A stretch of DNA of 22,587 nt from a virus. Its lineage: Duplodnaviria; Heunggongvirae; Uroviricota; Caudoviricetes. The translations under genes and the position numbers were made by a program. Positions within the stretch are counted from its first letter, which is position 1; each line of letters starts with the position of its first letter. A model generated the notes under the pieces. That model saw only the letters and a list, made by a program, of their open reading frames with translations, searched no databases and was not told the origin of the DNA. Below, piece after piece: positions 9,348-18,697 of this stretch. The stretch covers positions 1 to 22,587 of the IMG/VR virus record IMGVR_UViG_2547132415_000022. One strand, written 5' to 3'.

Positions 9348-10202
9348 TCAGCAGTTCGTCATCAGGGCGTCACCGCCACCGCCGGTGGCCTTGCTGCGGC
9401 GCTGCTGGGTCAGACTTTCGGTGTGGTCGAGACTGTTTTTCAGGCGGGTGAATGCCTGGCTGGTTTCATCCGCCCTGTTAGTCACCTCCTGCTTAAGTGC
9501 GGAAAAGGCGGTTTCCATCTCAGCGAGTCGCTGCTCAGTGGCGCTCAGCTTTTCCTGCACATGTTCAGCAACAGCGGTCACCGCTTCATGCACATCATTC
9601 AGACGGGCGTCATCGCTGGCCTGTTTGCGGCCAAAAATGGATTTCACCTTTTCGGTCAGGGCGGTGAACACGGTTTCAGGCAGGTCTTCAAATTCCAGCT
9701 CAACAGGCGTTGCCACTGAAATCAGGTTTTCAGGGCTTAATTTGAAGCGGTTCAGGGGGTTGTGTTTTGCCGTGCGGCAGAATTCCAGGTATTCCGTGCC
9801 GAGGCTTGCCGGGTCATCGGTGACGGCCAGACCCACCAGATAACATTTGCCGGTGTTGGCAAAGTTCGGCTGAATTTCCATTGAGGTGTAGACCTTCTGC
9901 GCGGCCTTGTTCATCGCGATAAGGTCATCGGTCGGGGTGATTTTCGCAAACAGCGCCCATTTGCCTTTCAGCGCCGAATCATCGTCAATCTTTTCGGCCT
10001 TCAGTTCGGCCACATCGCCATAACGCTTAAAAATACCGTCAGGCAGGATGCCGCGCAGATGTTCCAGGTTAATGCGGCAACCATAGACTCGCGGGTCAAA
10101 GGTTTCGGCCATTTCCTGAATATCCTGCGCACTGATGACACGCCCGTCACAGGTGTCACCCTCAACGCCGATACGAAAGAATTTTGAGACTTTTTTTGCC
10201 AT
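9348..10202 (-). CDS. O: Capsid scaffolding protein O
   Basis: ORF-track frame 9348..10268, with the probable true start at the internal ATG 10200-10202 (MAKKVSKFFRIGVEGDTCDGRV), giving 284 aa as in P2 gpO. Confidence 0.88.
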   Translation of the reverse strand: MAKKVSKFFRIGVEGDTCDGRVISAQDIQEMAETFDPRVYGCRINLEHLRGILPDGIFKRYGDVAELKAEKIDDDSALKGKWALFAKITPTDDLIAMNKAAQKVYTSMEIQPNFANTGKCYLVGLAVTDDPASLGTEYLEFCRTAKHNPLNRFKLSPENLISVATPVELEFEDLPETVFTALTEKVKSIFGRKQASDDARLNDVHEAVTAVAEHVQEKLSATEQRLAEMETAFSALKQEVTNRADETSQAFTRLKNSLDHTESLTQQRRSKATGGGGDALMTNC

Positions 10203-10375
10203 TGTCAGGAGTCCTGAATAGTGATTAGAGGAGTCACATGTCGGCATCAGTTTCCCGACGATGCGCATCCTCCGCCATCAGTCCCGGATGGCTTATCACT
10301 GACACAACAGCACCTTAGCGAATCGCGGGGCGCGACTCAGTAGCCTTGCCGTGTATTCATCACGGCGAGGTATTC
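10203..10375. promoter_or_regulatory. Divergent late-promoter region between O (leftward) and P (rightward)
   Basis: 173 bp intergenic region between divergently transcribed late operons, where P2 has its Ogr-dependent late promoters. Contains the perfect palindrome TCAGGAGTCCTGA at 10205-10217. I found no perfect TGT-N12-ACA Ogr site by eye, so the exact promoter elements are not assigned. Confidence 0.5.
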
Positions 10376-12148
10376 ATGACCATCACCACAGACACCACTC
10401 TTTTACACGACCCGCGTCGTCAGGCGGCGCTGCTGTACTGGCAGGGATTTTCCGTGCCGCAGATTGCCGCCATGTTGCAGATGAAACGCCCGACGGTGCA
10501 GAGCTGGAAACAGCGCGACGGCTGGGACAGCGTTGCCCCCATCAGCCGTGTCGAAATGAGTCTGGAAGCGCGGCTGACCCAGCTCATCATCAAACCGCAG
10601 AAAACCGGCGGTGATTTCAAGGAAATTGACCTGCTGGGACGCCAGATTGAACGACTGGCACGGGTAAACCGCTACAGCCAGACCGGCAACGAGGCAGACC
10701 TTAATCCGAACGTCGCTAACCGCAACAAAGGCGGGCGGCGCAAACCGAAAAAGAATTTTTTCAGTGACGAGGCCATCGAAAAGCTGGAGCAGATTTTCTT
10801 TGAGCAGTCTTTCGACTATCAGTTGCACTGGTATCGTGCCGGGCTTGAGCACCGCATCCGCGATATCCTGAAATCCCGCCAGATTGGCGCGACGTTTTAT
10901 TTTTCCCGCGAGGCGCTGCTGCGCGCCCTGAAAACCGGCCATAACCAGATTTTTCTGTCGGCCAGTAAAACGCAGGCGTATGTGTTCCGTGAATACATCA
11001 TCGCCTTTGCCCGTCTGGTTGACGTTGACCTGACCGGTGACCCGATTGTCCTGGGCAATAACGGCGCAAAACTGATTTTTCTCGGCACCAACTCCAACAC
11101 CGCACAGAGCCATAACGGCGACCTGTACGTCGACGAGATTTTCTGGATCCCGAATTTTCAGGTACTGCGTAAGGTGGCATCAGGTATGGCCTCACAGAGT
11201 CACCTGCGCTCGACCTATTTCTCCACCCCGTCCACGCTGGCGCACGACGCCTACCCGTTCTGGTCGGGTGAACTGTTCAACCGGGGACGCGCCAGCGCCG
11301 CCGAACGTGTGGAAATCGACGTCAGTCATAACGCCCTTGCCGGTGGTCTTCTCTGTGCGGACGGCCAGTGGCGGCAGATTGTCACCATTGAGGACGCCCT
11401 GAAAGGCGGCTGCACATTGTTCGACATTGAGCAGCTCAAACGCGAAAACAGCGCCGACGATTTTAAAAACCTGTTCATGTGTGAATTTGTTGACGACAAG
11501 GCATCGGTGTTCCCGTTCGAGGAGCTGCAACGCTGCATGGTCGACACGCTGGAAGAATGGGAAGACTACGCGCCGTTTGCCGCCAATCCGTTCGGCTCCC
11601 GCCCGGTATGGATTGGTTACGACCCGTCACACCGTGGCGACAGCGCCGGATGCGTGGTGCTGGCACCGCCGGTGGTGCCCGGTGGCAAATTTAGAATACT
11701 TGAGCGTCACCAGTGGAAAGGCATGGACTTTGCCACCCAGGCGGAGTCCATCCGCAAACTCACCGAAAAATACAACGTCGAATACATCGGTATTGATGCC
11801 ACCGGCCTCGGTGTCGGCGTGTTCCAGCTCGTGCGCTCGTTCTATCCCGCCGCGCGCGATATCCGCTACACGCCGGAAATGAAAACCGCAATGGTGCTCA
11901 AGGCCAAAGACGTCATCCGCCGTGGCTGTCTGGAATATGACGTCAGCGCCACCGACATCACCAGCTCGTTCATGGCTATCCGCAAGACCATGACCAGCAG
12001 CGGACGCAGCGCCACCTATGAGGCCAGCCGCAGCGAGGAAGCCAGCCACGCCGACCTCGCCTGGGCAACCATGCACGCCCTGTTAAATGAGCCACTCACC
12101 GCCGGTATCAGCACTCCGCTGACATCCACCATTCTGGAGTTTTACTGA
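10376..12148 (+). CDS. P: Terminase large (ATPase) subunit P
   Basis: ORF-track frame starts at 10346; the probable start is the ATG at 10376 (MTITTDTTLLHDPRRQ) with a GAGGT RBS, giving 590 aa as in P2 gpP. Its stop overlaps the Q start (TGATG). Confidence 0.9.
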   Translation: MTITTDTTLLHDPRRQAALLYWQGFSVPQIAAMLQMKRPTVQSWKQRDGWDSVAPISRVEMSLEARLTQLIIKPQKTGGDFKEIDLLGRQIERLARVNRYSQTGNEADLNPNVANRNKGGRRKPKKNFFSDEAIEKLEQIFFEQSFDYQLHWYRAGLEHRIRDILKSRQIGATFYFSREALLRALKTGHNQIFLSASKTQAYVFREYIIAFARLVDVDLTGDPIVLGNNGAKLIFLGTNSNTAQSHNGDLYVDEIFWIPNFQVLRKVASGMASQSHLRSTYFSTPSTLAHDAYPFWSGELFNRGRASAAERVEIDVSHNALAGGLLCADGQWRQIVTIEDALKGGCTLFDIEQLKRENSADDFKNLFMCEFVDDKASVFPFEELQRCMVDTLEEWEDYAPFAANPFGSRPVWIGYDPSHRGDSAGCVVLAPPVVPGGKFRILERHQWKGMDFATQAESIRKLTEKYNVEYIGIDATGLGVGVFQLVRSFYPAARDIRYTPEMKTAMVLKAKDVIRRGCLEYDVSATDITSSFMAIRKTMTSSGRSATYEASRSEEASHADLAWATMHALLNEPLTAGISTPLTSTILEFY

Positions 12149-13182
12149 TGAGCAAGAAAATAGGGAAAACACCGCGACCTGCGGCAAAAACAATCACCGC
12201 CAGCGCCCCGAAAATGGAAGCATTCACCTTTGGTGAGCCGGTGCCGGTACTTGACCGCCGTGACATTCTGGATTACGTCGAGTGCATCAGTAACGGCAGA
12301 TGGTATGAGCCGCCGGTCAGCTTTACCGGTCTGGCAAAAAGCCTGCGTGCTGCCGTGCATCACAGCTCACCGATTTACGTCAAACGTAATATTCTGGCTT
12401 CAACGTTTATCCCGCACCCGTGGCTTTCCCAGCAGGATTTCAGCCGCTTTGTGCTGGATTTTCTGGTTTTCGGTAATGCGTTTCTGGAAAAGCGTTACAG
12501 CACCACCGGTAAGGTCATCAGACTGGAAACCTCACCGGCAAAATATACCCGCCGTGGCGTGGAGGAGGATGTTTACTGGTGGGTGCCGTCCTTCAACGAG
12601 CCGACAGCCTTCGCGCCCGGCTCCGTGTTTCACCTGCTGGAGCCGGATATCAATCAGGAGCTGTACGGCCTGCCGGAATATCTCAGCGCCCTTAACTCTG
12701 CCTGGCTGAATGAGTCGGCCACGCTGTTCCGCCGCAAGTATTACGAAAACGGCGCTCATGCCGGATACATCATGTATGTCACCGATGCCGTGCAGGATCG
12801 CAACGATATCGAAATGCTTCGCGAAAACATGGTCAAGTCGAAAGGCCGCAACAACTTTAAAAATCTGTTTCTTTATGCCCCGCAGGGGAAAGCCGACGGC
12901 ATTAAAATTATCCCGCTCAGTGAAGTGGCAACGAAGGACGATTTTTTTAATATCAAAAAAGCCAGCGCCGCTGACCTGCTGGACGCGCACCGCATCCCCT
13001 TTCAGTTGATGGGCGGCAAGCCGGAGAACGTCGGGTCGCTGGGTGATATTGAGAAAGTGGCAAAGGTCTTTGTCCGCAATGAGCTTATCCCGCTACAGGA
13101 CAGGATCCGCGAGATAAACGGCTGGCTCGGTCAGGAGGTCATCCGCTTTAAAAACTACTCACTGGACACTGACAACGGCTGA
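12148..13182 (+). CDS. Q: Portal protein Q
   Basis: 344 aa ORF, same length as P2 gpQ as I recall it; last gene before cos, as in P2. Confidence 0.9.
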   Translation: MSKKIGKTPRPAAKTITASAPKMEAFTFGEPVPVLDRRDILDYVECISNGRWYEPPVSFTGLAKSLRAAVHHSSPIYVKRNILASTFIPHPWLSQQDFSRFVLDFLVFGNAFLEKRYSTTGKVIRLETSPAKYTRRGVEEDVYWWVPSFNEPTAFAPGSVFHLLEPDINQELYGLPEYLSALNSAWLNESATLFRRKYYENGAHAGYIMYVTDAVQDRNDIEMLRENMVKSKGRNNFKNLFLYAPQGKADGIKIIPLSEVATKDDFFNIKKASAADLLDAHRIPFQLMGGKPENVGSLGDIEKVAKVFVRNELIPLQDRIREINGWLGQEVIRFKNYSLDTDNG

Positions 13183-13187
13183 ACATC

Positions 13188-13209
13188 GCCGCCTGCGGGC
13201 GGCTTTTTT
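13188..13209 (+). terminator. Rho-independent terminator downstream of Q
   Basis: GCCGCC-TGCG-GGCGGC stem-loop followed by TTTTTT, starting 6 nt after the Q stop codon. Confidence 0.6.
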
Positions 13210-13357: not shown

Positions 13358-13687
13358 CGCCCGCTTCATGGGGCGGTTTTGATGCAATACATGAGCATCG
13401 TAATGCCATATCGTGACAGGATTATAGAACATGAAGGTATACTAACTTACACATGCAAAAAAACGCACACTCAGGCATTCTCTTTGGAATACAATATGGT
13501 AAAAATATGATCATTTGAAGCTGCATATCCGTGCAGATTGAAATCAATGATGCTGCCCCTTCGTTAAGACAGCCAGGCCGCAATCTCTTGAGCTCAAGTG
13601 GACATCTAAGACAGAAAAACAATTTAAAGGCAAAGTTTTCGTAATGGTATCTTTGTCACAGCACACGCTAAAAAGGAACTAAACCTC

Positions 13688-14752
13688 ATGAGCACTCAGC
13701 AAGTCCTCAACATCCCTACAGCCGTATCGCAAGCGACCATCGAAAAATGGTTGAAAGGACTGGAACAGACAACGGAATTAGCCTTTTTTCGCCGTGTTGG
13801 CGGGCGGCATGGCTTCAATGTTACGAGCCGCTGGGCAAGTACATTGGATAACTTGAATAAAACTCTGAATGACCCATCGAAGCAAGGTACGCCTGCAAAC
13901 TTTTCAAATCTCCGTTTGATTACGTTAAAAATAATCACTAGCGTAAACCATTATTATTCAATTGATGGTATTAAATCAGGAACCATTAATTTAATACCAA
14001 ATATAATCAACTACCCTCACCTCGATAAAACATTTAGCTCAGTATTTCCAATAAAACTTGATGATAATACAGGACTTCCTTCGACTCCTGGGCATTTCAT
14101 TACTTCCATCGAAAAAATGGGGGATGGTATTGCTGTAATATATTCCTATATTATTTTAAGAAAAATCCAAGGAAGGAGTAAGCTACGTAGCAATCAATAT
14201 CCAGAGCAGTACTTCAACACTGTTTTCATCCCTAATGATTTAAGCCGTATAGAATATCGGGTTGATAAATCACTAGGTAAAAGAGCGTCTGAAAAAGCGA
14301 TGGCAGATTTGCGCGCAAAATTTAATGAATTACTCGTGGAACTTAATATTAAGTTAGCTGTTGAAACTATAAATTTCTACAAAGCAATTTCCAATATTTA
14401 CCTTGACAAACAATATGGAAGACTTGTTCAGGTTAATTTCCTTGATCCAAATGGAGATGAGGATGCTGTTCTTCGTTGCAGAACAGACCCCAATTATGAT
14501 GCCCGTTATCGCGAGGTTGTATCTAAAACTCAGAACGGAACACCTCGCTCATTGACCCTTGAAGTTTCTGGCGTTGCAGTGCGATTAGATAGTAAAGTTG
14601 CAAACGAAACAATTTCAAATGAAATTGGTTTTGAACCCAGCAAAACTGATTGGTCTACAAACAAATTTTGTGGGGATTTTTATTTTACACAAACAGCAGA
14701 TCATCAGGTGCATTATGGGGTGATAAATGATTTACTCACAAGAGCGAAATAA
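13688..14752 (+). CDS. Hypothetical protein, 354 aa; first gene of an AT-rich cargo cassette; no recognisable catalytic motif
   Basis: ATG at 13688 with an AGGAA RBS 9 nt upstream; strongly AT-rich (roughly mid-30s percent GC by eye) against a >50 percent GC backbone; not a P2 gene; no Walker A or other motif found on inspection. Confidence 0.7.
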   Translation: MSTQQVLNIPTAVSQATIEKWLKGLEQTTELAFFRRVGGRHGFNVTSRWASTLDNLNKTLNDPSKQGTPANFSNLRLITLKIITSVNHYYSIDGIKSGTINLIPNIINYPHLDKTFSSVFPIKLDDNTGLPSTPGHFITSIEKMGDGIAVIYSYIILRKIQGRSKLRSNQYPEQYFNTVFIPNDLSRIEYRVDKSLGKRASEKAMADLRAKFNELLVELNIKLAVETINFYKAISNIYLDKQYGRLVQVNFLDPNGDEDAVLRCRTDPNYDARYREVVSKTQNGTPRSLTLEVSGVAVRLDSKVANETISNEIGFEPSKTDWSTNKFCGDFYFTQTADHQVHYGVINDLLTRAK

Positions 14753-15161
14753 AAAAATGCGCTCATTAGTGTATAAACAAAGAGTACTCCTGGAGAATGC
14801 CGGAAGCTCTTCTGTTTTCATAAATAATGATTCTCACATATATTATACAAATTTACTAGAATATGTAGAGGGTGATCTTGATCGTAATATTTATACAATC
14901 CCAGTATTACGAAAAGCCATAAAAACTGACAATTATGAACATTTGCTACGAGTTGTTCAATTTTTTAGTAGCAATACCTCCTGTTTATTTAACGTTAAAT
15001 ATTGCTACGAACTAGAAAACATGGAGTTTGAGGACATACAAGCTGATGAATATACCAACTATATATTAAACGGAGTTGAACCTGTAACTGCCAATGGTTC
15101 TGAAATTGAAGACTTCAATCCAAAATATCTTTCATTTTATTGCATAATAAACCTGGATTGA
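14727..15161 (+). CDS. Hypothetical small acidic protein, 144 aa (134 aa if it starts at the ATG at 14757); second cargo gene
   Basis: Overlaps the 3' end of the first cargo gene by 26 nt, suggesting translational coupling; same AT-rich composition; no recognisable motif. Confidence 0.6.
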   Translation: MIYSQERNKKMRSLVYKQRVLLENAGSSSVFINNDSHIYYTNLLEYVEGDLDRNIYTIPVLRKAIKTDNYEHLLRVVQFFSSNTSCLFNVKYCYELENMEFEDIQADEYTNYILNGVEPVTANGSEIEDFNPKYLSFYCIINLD

Positions 15162-15166
15162 CTGTC

Positions 15167-16027
15167 ATGAACAAACAACAAATCACATGTGAGTTAGGCA
15201 AAAGGGTTCATTTTGAAGATGAAGCGAGTTTTATTGAAACATTATACTCGGATATAGAAGTCATAATAAAACTAATGGAGCAATCTAGTGACAAGTATTA
15301 TTGTGATGATGAAGATAAACTAAGCCATACAATTGTAGCCTCTCTTGTACACCTAGGTTACGATGCAACCGAACAAACAAAAAAAAATGGAAGTGTGGAC
15401 ATAACCGTTCGTCCGAAAAATGGAGGATATACATGGATTGCTGAAGCAAAAATCGGATACGGGAACCAAAAAATATTCGAGGGGCTACTTCAGTTGCTTA
15501 CTCGCTATGTTAAAAGAGATAATCATGCAGGCATGGTTATCTATTATCAAAAATCAAAGTCATCTTATCATTTCAAACAATGGCTGAAATACATATACAA
15601 CCATGAGTGGAAGGATTATTGTACAAAGAAAGGGTCATTAAAAAAAGCGACTCCGCTACTTTCTCATTTAAAAAGTACGGTTTGTCCGAAAGTCAAACAA
15701 GGCTGTTGTTATGCTGACATTGATGTCATCCAACCTTCGACTGATGGTCTAAAACTTCGCTGCTTCTATATTGACGTGCATCATGACCCAATTGACAGTA
15801 GTGGTTTAAAGAATAAGTCAATCGCCTTTGGTCAAGCCCAAAATAGAATTAGAGATTTATATCACTTATGGAAGACAGGACAGTTCGACGGCAGTATGAT
15901 AGATGAATTATTTGAAGAAATAAAAATATATCATAGCAATGAACTTGACGAAGAATATGAAGATGAAGATGAAGATGAAGATGAAGATGAAGATGAAGAT
16001 GAAGATTCGAATATAAACTCAAAATGA
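15167..16027 (+). CDS. Hypothetical protein with a PD-(D/E)xK nuclease-like motif and a poly-acidic C-terminal tail; third cargo gene (ORF track starts it at a TTG at 15140)
   Basis: ATG at 15167 lies 5 nt after the stop of cargo gene 2. Protein contains GSVDITVRPKNGGYTWIAEAKIG, a D-x15-E-x-K pattern in a strand-like context resembling the restriction-endonuclease fold active site. C-terminus is EEYEDEDEDEDEDEDEDEDSNINSK. Confidence 0.65.
   Translation: MNKQQITCELGKRVHFEDEASFIETLYSDIEVIIKLMEQSSDKYYCDDEDKLSHTIVASLVHLGYDATEQTKKNGSVDITVRPKNGGYTWIAEAKIGYGNQKIFEGLLQLLTRYVKRDNHAGMVIYYQKSKSSYHFKQWLKYIYNHEWKDYCTKKGSLKKATPLLSHLKSTVCPKVKQGCCYADIDVIQPSTDGLKLRCFYIDVHHDPIDSSGLKNKSIAFGQAQNRIRDLYHLWKTGQFDGSMIDELFEEIKIYHSNELDEEYEDEDEDEDEDEDEDEDSNINSK
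15959..16006 (+). repeat. Perfect hexanucleotide microsatellite (GAAGAT)x8 inside cargo gene 3, encoding a poly-Glu-Asp tail
   Basis: Eight uninterrupted GAAGAT copies read directly from the sequence; in-frame. Confidence 0.95.
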
Positions 16028-16161: not shown

Positions 16162-18432
16162 TTAATTAGGAAAAACACTCCCAGTTGGAATTTTTTTAAA
16201 TTTATATTTCCTCCCATCGAAACATACTGTCGCACCGCGTGCTAATACCTGTGGTTCCCATTGATTCGGCGTAATACCCTCCTGAGCCAACTCGAATCTT
16301 ATACGTGGCGTCTGTTCCCGTTCAGCTTTTGTCATTCGTCCTGAGGGCGCTATCTGATAAGGTTTTAATGGCTCACAGCTCTTTTGCTGGCGATTTGGTC
16401 GTGGCGCATCGTGTTTTAGTGCGCATCTGAGCACCGTCACGACTTCAGGGTCATCCCAGCCGATAACCCCGCGCTCAATCAGATTCAACACCGCTGCTGC
16501 TTGCTCAGAAGGTATGGATGTCATAGCAGGATCGCCACCGCTAGTTAGCTTTCCACAGTTATTGACAGGACTCCGAGGCGCGGCGATGCCGCTTTTTAAA
16601 GTCAAAGGCTCAACGACCGGAACTTTCGGCACAATGCGCCAGTCCGTCGTTCTGGTGATATGAATATGACGCGCGCCGAGATGCGGCGCGTAAATGCCGA
16701 CCACCCTCTCGACCTCTTCCTCGTACTCGTTAACGTCATCCGACGGGCTACGGGCGACTCTGACAGTCTGACAATCGCGCGGGACATTTGCCCCACCCTG
16801 CGCGCTGATATACAACGCAAAATCACCACTGTCTGCGGCGGCGCGTGCAGCCTCGACGCGCTCGTCAAACTCATCAGCAATGCTGACGCCGCGCGGCAAT
16901 TTGCGTAGTTCACGGTAAGCCCCCATTGTCGGCAGACCAACCGTTTTAAATTGCGGGATGCGCCACGTTGACGCCCATGCGGTAACAGCCGCAGCAGTGT
17001 CTTTCAGCGGCCTGCCGGTATCGTTATCGAGCTGACCATCCAGTGCATAGCCGTCGATGTTTTTTGAGATGTATTTCGCGATATACCCCGCAGCACCGCC
17101 CCGGTTAAGGTGTTTTGCCTGAAAACGGTTTCGCGCGGCTCCTCTTTCATCGCCATCCTCTTTGAGCGCATAGCGACGCATGATTTCGATAATCTGGTTA
17201 CGCTGGCGCGGATTACAAAAAAGCATCATATGCCAGTGCGGCGTTCCGTCGTGGTGTGGCTCGACGACACGCAAACCGTAGACCTGTAAATCATTATCCT
17301 TGAATGCCGTGCGCATCAGGCTCCAGATACGGCAGAGATAACGCTGCGCATCCTTTGGATTAAATGCCTCATCGTTCCAGCCGTGATTTAGCTGGACGGT
17401 TTTACTTTCGCCTTTTCTGACCTGACGTGTCGGGTGATACTTTGACGGCGCGGTCAGCGTGATAAACATCCCCACATCACCCTCTGCTGCGGCGTAACGC
17501 TCAATACCGGCAATGGTGTTCATCAGCTCCATCCGGCGAATTTCAGGATTAGAAATACTGCCCATCACCTTACTGATAAGGTCGATGCGCTCGCCGGTTT
17601 CCCTGTTTTCGAGATCACACGATTTAAGAAATTCCAGATTTGCCTGGCGGCGTGCACGCACATCACGAATGGCATGTTTACTGGCATAAGGAGAACGGTC
17701 TTTATTGACCTCCCCGACAGCAATCAGTAACGCCTCATGCCAGCGCATACGCTGGCCTTTAAGCTGATGGGTCCACCACTCATCGTTAAACAGACGGGCA
17801 ATGGCAGAATATGCCTGCCTCGTGGTCATCTGCCCTTTACGGTATTTTTTCCAGTAGAGCGGGGAAATATTGAAAGCACGTGCAGCACCAGCAACATGAC
17901 CATAGAGGTGAGCCTGCGCCTCATCCGTAAACAGCGATTCTTTTTCGCCATGCGCATCCCCCCAGGCATCGCAGAGTTCCTCATACATCATGAAAAGCTG
18001 CGATGAGATACGGGCGGCAAACTTTTTCAGCTCCTTGTCATTCATCCCCGGCAGACGCGCATAATGGTCACGCTCTGCCAGAAACAGCAACGACGCGTCG
18101 GTGTTCATTTTATGGCGCTGATTCACACGCTCAATGCGCGGCCATAAACGACGCTGAAAAGTGGATGTGAGAAAATAAAACCCGTGCACCGGGCTTTTAT
18201 TGCGCCGGATGTAGTCATAGCGTGACGTAAACAGCGAGCGCAAAAAGTAAGGCAGGCGGTTAATCGTGGATAAAACACCTTGCACCTGACGCATCTCGTC
18301 ACGTGTAAGGGGTCTTTCGCGCCCGACAGCCTCGCGTGGCGCGTTCCATGCATAAGCACCGGTAAACGCCTTACCGGTGCCTGCGGCAAATGCTGACGGA
18401 GGGACAAAACGCCCGGAGGCTTTAACGGCCAT
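16162..18432 (-). CDS. A: Replication initiation endonuclease A (rolling-circle initiator)
   Basis: ORF-track frame 16162..18474 (TTG start); probable start is the ATG at 18430-18432 (MAVKASGRFVPPSAFAAGTGK), as I recall for P2 gpA. Contains the HUH-like PHWHMMLF and the paired-tyrosine YIAKYISK motifs expected of this nicking enzyme. Confidence 0.9.
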   Translation of the reverse strand: MAVKASGRFVPPSAFAAGTGKAFTGAYAWNAPREAVGRERPLTRDEMRQVQGVLSTINRLPYFLRSLFTSRYDYIRRNKSPVHGFYFLTSTFQRRLWPRIERVNQRHKMNTDASLLFLAERDHYARLPGMNDKELKKFAARISSQLFMMYEELCDAWGDAHGEKESLFTDEAQAHLYGHVAGAARAFNISPLYWKKYRKGQMTTRQAYSAIARLFNDEWWTHQLKGQRMRWHEALLIAVGEVNKDRSPYASKHAIRDVRARRQANLEFLKSCDLENRETGERIDLISKVMGSISNPEIRRMELMNTIAGIERYAAAEGDVGMFITLTAPSKYHPTRQVRKGESKTVQLNHGWNDEAFNPKDAQRYLCRIWSLMRTAFKDNDLQVYGLRVVEPHHDGTPHWHMMLFCNPRQRNQIIEIMRRYALKEDGDERGAARNRFQAKHLNRGGAAGYIAKYISKNIDGYALDGQLDNDTGRPLKDTAAAVTAWASTWRIPQFKTVGLPTMGAYRELRKLPRGVSIADEFDERVEAARAAADSGDFALYISAQGGANVPRDCQTVRVARSPSDDVNEYEEEVERVVGIYAPHLGARHIHITRTTDWRIVPKVPVVEPLTLKSGIAAPRSPVNNCGKLTSGGDPAMTSIPSEQAAAVLNLIERGVIGWDDPEVVTVLRCALKHDAPRPNRQQKSCEPLKPYQIAPSGRMTKAEREQTPRIRFELAQEGITPNQWEPQVLARGATVCFDGRKYKFKKIPTGSVFPN

Positions 18433-18697
18433 ATGAGCCAAAAGCCTCTGAACAACGCTTGCTGAGTTGCTCAACCTGCACGTTTAAATCAGCAAAAGAC
18501 TTTGCGCTTCCGGTCAGAATATCGTGATGCATCAGGCCGGAAACGAGCTGGCTTAATTTCGGGTAATAACCAACCACCGACAGCCATTCCTGACCGGCGT
18601 TTTTACCGCTTTCCGCTCTCTTTTTCTCGTGGAGAATAAACTGAAAGCTGTCACTGGTAACGACATAACGTTCGCCAATTTCAATACGAATACTCAT
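18422..18697 (-). CDS. Small early-operon protein, P2 orf83-like
   Basis: 91 aa ORF immediately upstream of A, overlapping its start by 11 nt; occupies the orf83 position of the P2 early operon. Confidence 0.6.
   Translation of the reverse strand: MSIRIEIGERYVVTSDSFQFILHEKKRAESGKNAGQEWLSVVGYYPKLSQLVSGLMHHDILTGSAKSFADLNVQVEQLSKRCSEAFGSYGR

Follow-up and report, generated by a model that had tools for sequence, protein, structure and literature searches.

How is a small acidic protein, encoded in tight coupling between a basic protein and a predicted nuclease, tied to its neighbours, and what does it do there? The question is raised by the 22,587 nucleotides (nt) of IMG/VR record IMGVR_UViG_2547132415_000022 (positions 1 to 22,587; hereafter the window), a P2-like prophage. 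Three genes follow one another on its + strand: gene 1 (13688..14752, 354 aa), which specifies a basic protein with an isoelectric point (pI) of 9.06; gene 2 (14727..15161, 144 aa, ATG start), which specifies an acidic one; and gene 3 (15167..16027, 286 aa), by its sequence a PD-(D/E)xK nuclease. An initial annotation of the window had proposed that gene 2 is made in fixed proportion to both neighbours, as an antitoxin-like or adaptor subunit. We find that gene 2 truly codes for protein and is under purifying selection, and that it supplies the middle subunit of a three-gene cassette, conserved and horizontally mobile, which serves as temperate-phage cargo. As to function, we lean, if only by a little, towards a role in anti-phage defence or exclusion: gene 2 would be a protein-binding regulator or adaptor of this candidate system, restraining or tethering the nuclease.

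A coding gene within a mobile three-gene cassette

The junctions described in the initial annotation are borne out by the letters. Genes 1 and 2 overlap by 26 nt (13688-14752 and 14727-15161). The stop codon of gene 2, TGA at 15159-15161, is followed by the five-nucleotide spacer CTGTC and then by the ATG of gene 3 at 15167; an in-frame TTG at 15140 is present as an alternative start for gene 3. Gene 2 itself has a second in-frame ATG at 14757, 4 nt 3' of the gene 1 stop. The product is indeed acidic, with a pI of 4.74 in its 144-aa form and 4.52 in a 134-aa form, and with 21 aspartate and glutamate residues against 13 lysines and arginines.

An overlapping frame of this size could in principle be a chance or mis-called one, either untranslated or of consequence only 3' of 14757. 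Its first 10 codons are shaped by the frame of gene 1 and several gene callers begin at Met11, as such a reading would have it. When the 35% GC cargo was shuffled 2000 times, however, just 8 of the shuffled sequences had an ATG-initiated open reading frame of at least 134 aa in any of the six frames (probability 0.004). The homologues of gene 2, found across Gammaproteobacteria and in phages, are 54-88% identical and share 42 invariant positions; among pairs with unsaturated synonymous divergence, the ratio of nonsynonymous to synonymous substitution rates (dN/dS) lies between 0.035 and 0.089, i.e. at 0.04-0.09. The predicted fold is confident as well, and the NCBI annotation pipeline PGAP calls the same 144-aa coding sequence (WP_024166900, "hypothetical protein"). 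The chance reading, to which we give next to no credence, is thus refuted for the body of the gene; what is left of it is the choice of start site.

The family is small. A HMMER profile search of 1.84 billion representatives returned only 24 clusters, most of them of 133-148 aa, the whole range being 101-148 aa except for one 32-residue fragment. No match was found in PADLOC or Pfam, and only chance-level ones in NCBIfam and PHROGs; nor do 30 family members have a Pfam family in common. One homologue, P0008 (156 aa), carries a 12-residue internal duplication within helix 1 of the fold described below: the duplicated piece is its second LLDYLE..IE.. segment, and the rest of the protein is colinear.

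In the P2-like prophages of Escherichia, Serratia and related hosts (L001-L010 and L022), the gene order is always gpQ-gene 1-gene 2-gene 3-gpA, and none of these P2-type loci has lost the 26-nt overlap, either of the ATGs or the close junction of gene 2 with gene 3. In distant relatives (20-39% identity) the cargo sites are very different, but gene order, sizes and the coupling of the junctions are kept; adjacent genes overlap by up to 23 nt or stand at most 2 nt apart. Such triads adjoin the integrase gene of an E. coli lambdoid prophage (L011), the CI gene of another prophage (L025), the integrase gene of a 14.8-kb PM2-like Vibrio prophage (L026), a tail-fibre gene on a Pantoea megaplasmid (L029) and resolvase genes (L016 and L017); a further one is found in Pseudoalteromonas (L013). 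The part of the initial proposal that makes gene 2 a fixed partner of both neighbours therefore holds in this sense: order and coupled junctions are kept in every complete locus recovered.

The cassette is rare and patchy: of 5426 complete E. coli genomes two carry it, one of them within a decayed prophage. In E. coli ZH177 (NZ_CM125652; L001 3995-9759) the surrounding prophage has decayed, its terminase, gpV, gpA and a regulator being truncated pseudogenes; the three cargo genes are 100% identical to those of the window, which suggests that the cargo was kept after the prophage decayed. The Vibrio triad (L026 11223-13498, about 2.3 kb) belongs to the temperate phage 10N.247.311.62_PE001 (PQ189315, Vinavirales), the other end of which carries a gene for a MazF-like toxin.

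The start of gene 2

Two ATGs compete for the start of gene 2, and the initial annotation had left the choice between 14727 and 14757 undecided. The balance has shifted towards 14727, where translation probably begins, without settling the matter. A Shine-Dalgarno-like sequence, GGGGTGAT (14717..14724, + strand), can be read within the gene 1 codons for Y-G-V-I, with its GGGG core 6 nt 5' of ATG 14727; across all divergent P2-type loci this core is GGGG or GGAG. Several distant homologues (L013, P0074, P0081, P0084 and P0085) have only the upstream methionine, about 14 residues before a conserved KQR motif, and in L013 the gene 2 start also overlaps gene 1. Taken together, the strong and well-spaced Shine-Dalgarno sequence, the upstream-only methionine of these homologues and the prediction of residues 2-24 as one helix favour 14727.

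Several points weigh against this choice. The conservation of both the Shine-Dalgarno sequence and ATG 14727 is confounded by the coding needs of gene 1: the ATG is formed from the codons of its invariant Asn347-Asp348 (AAT GAT, 14726-14731). Residues 2-10 of gene 2 vary radically (codon 5 specifies Q, L, P or K) where gene 1 varies synonymously, so that the overlap appears constrained by gene 1 and the conservation of ATG and Shine-Dalgarno is not independent evidence. Gene callers, moreover, often choose the 134-aa form. We also considered the conserved glycine codon (GGG or GGA) of the Shine-Dalgarno sequence as independent support and discarded it, since 55% of the glycine codons in the cassette are GGR anyway. 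A single change, T14728C, would be silent in gene 1 (AAT to AAC, N347) and turn the gene 2 ATG into ACG.

The alternative ATG (Met11, 14757..14759, + strand), in frame and 4 nt after the gene 1 stop, is a possible re-initiation start that would yield the 134-aa form. Its counterpart is missing in several distant homologues, and codon 11 is GTG in P0003 (L022); the valine of P0003 does not rule out a second start there, because the codon is GTG. Both 14727 and 14757 might be used.

A winged helix that probably binds protein

An AlphaFold2 model of gene 2, built on a 13-sequence alignment, has a mean predicted local distance difference test score (pLDDT) of 88.7 and a predicted template modelling score (pTM) of 0.79. 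A long N-terminal helix (residues 2-24) precedes a canonical winged-helix core, a1-b1-a2-a3-b2-b3, that spans residues 34-104, with helices at 34-49, 58-65 and 70-81 and strands at 55-56, 88-95 and 101-104. The core is followed by a helix at 106-115 and a C-terminal strand at 135-141. The protein is predicted to be fully ordered, no segment falling below a pLDDT of 50. A fold search of BFVD gave one borderline match, to an uncharacterised Paenibacillus phage protein (E 7.7e-4, TM 0.5), and otherwise generic winged helices.

The topology is thus that of winged-helix regulators; what such regulators also possess, a conserved basic or polar recognition helix and a capacity to bind DNA, was not found in gene 2. 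Its net charge is -8, and across 30 family members the median is -10.5 with a median pI of 4.73. In the same members, helix 3 is hydrophobic at V76, V77, F79 and F80 as well as at positions 73 and 74, and mostly acidic at positions 71, 72 and 78. The best-conserved motif of exposed type is an acidic loop, G124-x-E126-I-E128-D129-F130-N/D-P132; the only frequently conserved basic residue is R62 in helix 2 (21 of the 30). Given its acidic charge, its hydrophobic and acidic helix 3 and its acidic conserved motif, gene 2 is unlikely to read DNA, and would act instead through protein-protein contacts.

The neighbours offer two candidate partners. Gene 1 is modelled with a pLDDT of 89.2 and a pTM of 0.88, and its family has a median pI of 8.69. 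Its predicted fold is of the RdgC/Iml3/CENP-L DNA-binding type, shared with RdgC and RexA; the RdgC/RexA/Iml3-Chl4 fold binds DNA non-specifically, and the lambda exclusion protein RexA adopts it too (PMC11077077). By sequence profile, gene 1 does not belong to the RdgC or RexA families: Pfam gave no match and a PDB sequence search came back empty. Direct homology to lambda RexA was rejected (hhalign probability 0.1%), and only the fold-level likeness to RdgC stands. On this model we propose gene 1 as a putative DNA sensor or clamp.

Gene 3 is the proposed effector. Judged from its sequence, it is a PD-(D/E)xK nuclease with an intact catalytic E..D..ExK motif: an alignment of 35 homologues has E49, D78, E93-A-K95, Q109 and Y114 invariant, which comprises the E...D...(D/E)xK core of the superfamily. 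The nuclease domain (residues 13-147) matches positions 230-369 of the 410-position profile of the PADLOC candidate PDC-S54 (E 2.8e-7), and the protein matches phrog_9664 (E 7.5e-74). The homologues stay below the Pfam threshold, with PDDEXK_9 seen in 8 of 35 (best E 0.013) and Mrr_cat in 2 of 35, and a PDB profile search with gene 3 found nothing. A D..ExK-like motif visible by eye in both gene 3 and P2 Tin raised the thought of a common origin, which was dismissed at an hhalign probability of 0.07%. At its C terminus gene 3 carries a poly(Glu-Asp) tail encoded by nine tandem copies of GAAGAT (15953..16006, + strand). The tail differs in length between strains, with six residues (18 nt) fewer in the 280-aa protein of E. 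coli A23, and most homologues do without it: it is a slippage-prone, non-conserved appendage.

We can now sketch how the cassette might work. Gene 1 would sense DNA, be it phage DNA, ends, or replication or recombination intermediates, and gene 3 would cut nucleic acid. The hydrophobic helix 3 and the acidic G-x-EIEDF loop of gene 2 would restrain the nuclease, tether it to gene 1, or both, until the trigger arrives. Coupled translation, with the gene 2 start inside gene 1 and gene 3 5 nt further on, would see to it that the nuclease is never made without gene 2. The opposite charges of acidic gene 2 and basic gene 1 make a latch on the DNA-binding surface plausible; a latch directed at the nuclease is equally plausible, given the pairing of gene 2 with gene 3 in Stx1a phages and the lone copies of gene 2, to which we now turn.

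Stx1a-converting phages have a divergent version of the trio (350/130/221 aa), placed on the opposite strand in the interval from antiterminator Q to stx1AB. It is present in seven Stx1a phage records, for example in phage Stx1_499 (LC567825 13614-15721; L028 1993-4100). Its third protein is a clear homologue of gene 3 (E 1.6e-42), and the middle one resembles gene 2 (hmmsearch E 9e-10, hhalign probability 77.6%); a relation of the first protein to gene 1 was not detectable. The retention of these two genes behind an unrelated-looking first gene hints, at the level of sequence, that gene 2 and gene 3 form the core pair.

Gene 2-like genes also occur alone, with no relative of gene 1 or gene 3 within 4 kb. 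P0091 (L018 4001-4405 and L019 1912-2316; homology supported by hhalign at 93.2%) lies beside SLT, tail and HNH genes in phage-like surroundings. P0083 stands for two tandem gene 2-like open reading frames (L023 2598-3029 and 3162-3566), and P0086 (L020 2208-2654 and L021 2481-2927; 96.7%) sits within a run of small open reading frames. P0090 and P0075 are further candidates, but their contigs are too short to judge. These lone copies may serve anti-defence, or the fold may have an independent function. Their presence in phage-like contigs, together with the gene 2-gene 3 pair of the Stx1a phages, speaks in favour of a neutraliser-like role.

A bolder version of the scheme, which we hold only tentatively and think unlikely as it stands, has an RdgC-like clamp license the nuclease in an as yet unnamed anti-phage system, with gene 2 as an acidic latch. 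The latch would block either the nuclease or the basic pore of the clamp until DNA displaces it. The lone copies would then be phage-captured latches that keep the nuclease off, an anti-defence strategy of stealing the regulatory subunit of the system.

Competing explanations have to be measured against the adaptor. In a type II toxin-antitoxin system, gene 2 would be a labile antitoxin that neutralises gene 3 and regulates its own expression through the winged helix, gene 1 being an accessory. Gene 2 has the right look for this: it is small and acidic, directly 5' of the nuclease and translationally coupled to it, with a winged-helix fold; the lone genes in phage-like contigs could act as neutralisers in anti-defence, and the Stx1a phages retain the pair behind a first gene not detectably related to gene 1. 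Type II antitoxins, however, usually have a disordered toxin-binding arm. Gene 2 is predicted to be folded throughout, its helix 3 has no conserved basic residues, and its sequence falls into none of the antitoxin families known to Pfam, NCBIfam, PADLOC or PHROGs. No inverted-repeat operator of at least 8 nt was found 5' of gene 1. Finally, the conserved unit is of three genes and not two, gene 1 being conserved as strictly as gene 2 in the triads. The antitoxin part of the initial proposal thus lacks support as it stands, and we regard a classical type II system as unlikely. Still less probable, in our estimate, is that gene 2 binds nucleic acid, be it to regulate transcription of the cassette or to recognise DNA or RNA and so give the nuclease its target specificity. 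The winged helix would invite this reading, but the net charge of the protein and of its family, the hydrophobic and acidic character of the putative recognition helix, the restriction of basic conservation to R62 and the lack of a match to any Pfam helix-turn-helix family all speak against it.

The cassette might also be a DNA-metabolism module of benefit to the phage, in which an RdgC-like modulator of RecA or recombination works with the nuclease and gene 2 helps in their assembly. E. coli RdgC does modulate RecA and replication restart (PMC11077077), and the P2 hotspot in which the cassette lies includes non-defence cargo. On the other side, the cassette is found where unrelated temperate phages keep their morons or cargo (beside int, CI or resolvase genes, or between Q and stx), it is rare and patchy with a foreign GC content, and it is intact in a decayed prophage. 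Cargo positions, rarity, foreign GC and retention form a pattern typical of defence cargo rather than of a core phage function, and we consider this module improbable. A role in defence is further suggested by the location in the hotspot and by the match of gene 3 to a PADLOC candidate domain. All in all, the antitoxin, transcription-factor and non-defence readings are weaker than that of an adaptor or latch. The three proteins co-diverge with r 0.94-0.96 (mirror-tree, partial correlation), and this divergence in step, added to the constant order and coupled junctions, makes an adaptor or regulatory subunit the most reasonable role for gene 2. Two considerations temper this preference: the distance-matrix correlations do not tell which of its two neighbours is the partner of gene 2, and part of the cargo found at the hotspot is non-defensive, e.g. 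partition systems and toxins (Rousset et al. 2022).

Genomic setting and known systems

The three + strand genes form a 35% GC island between phage flanks of 55% GC. On the gpQ side lie the gpO scaffold gene (9348-10268, - strand), the gpP terminase gene (10346-12148, + strand) and the gpQ portal gene (12148-13182, + strand), the last followed by its terminator (13188-13203) and the cos region; on the other side is the gpA replication endonuclease gene (16162-18474, - strand). The cargo is therefore placed in the gpQ/cos-gpA hotspot of P2, an interval known for its anti-phage systems, where P2 itself carries old and tin (Rousset et al. 2022). A consensus scan picked out a promoter-like site, TTGGAA-16-TATGAT (13484..13511, + strand), 5' of gene 1 and past the gpQ terminator and cos region, as a candidate promoter of the cassette; no terminator-like sites were seen between genes 1, 2 and 3. 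Just 3' of the promoter-like -10 there is a palindrome, GCTGCA-n5-TGCAGA (13521-13537), which is below the minimum length of the repeat tool.

The exact cassette has been catalogued before. System #145 in Table S5B of Rousset et al. 2022, labelled DUF5939 and DpnII-MboI and counted in 14 of 18,150 loci, has identical genes 1 and 2, a gene 3 whose only difference is a Glu-Asp tail that is a little shorter, and the same hotspot. It is a catalogue entry only, unnamed and without note or assay, and its domain labels fit the nuclease, not gene 2. In the same hotspot, Rst_3HP ("hp + hp + hp"; pFR109, E. coli E1114), validated against P1 (Rousset et al. 2022), likewise consists of three hypothetical proteins. 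Identity with it was rejected: the sequences are unrelated and the sizes differ, at about 336/360/226 aa versus 354/144/286 aa.

Other known systems resemble the cassette in parts. Models of known systems in PADLOC match neither gene 1 nor gene 2. PDC-S54, a single-gene phage-defence candidate, is one longer protein, and what matches it is the gene 3 domain only, not gene 2. In lambda Rex the effector RexB is a membrane protein, whereas the predicted effector of the cassette is a soluble PD-(D/E)xK nuclease, and nothing in Rex corresponds to gene 2. Type II toxin-antitoxin systems with nuclease toxins share with the cassette a small acidic protein whose gene lies directly 5' of that for a potentially toxic nuclease and is coupled to it; they differ from it in that the unit here is of three genes and gene 2 is folded throughout, without a recognisable antitoxin domain. 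Literature searches with the WP accessions, PDC-S54 and RdgC-like defence systems found no characterisation. The cassette is thus catalogued but uncharacterised, and its composition differs from that of any named system.

Taken narrowly, the finding is modest: a real gene with identified neighbours, for which the idea of an antitoxin has turned into a specific, testable adaptor or latch hypothesis. If the role in defence is true, its reach would be wider, with a new architecture of prophage immunity that combines a sensor of RdgC fold with a small latch of winged-helix fold and a PD-(D/E)xK effector. The RexA/RdgC fold, poorly understood as it is, would then be linked to a nuclease effector, and a protein family without annotation anywhere would gain a function. 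The lone gene 2-like phage genes offer a testable case of regulator capture as counter-defence. Finally, the divergent copy between Q and stx1AB means that the family may affect phage competition in Shiga-toxin-producing E. coli.

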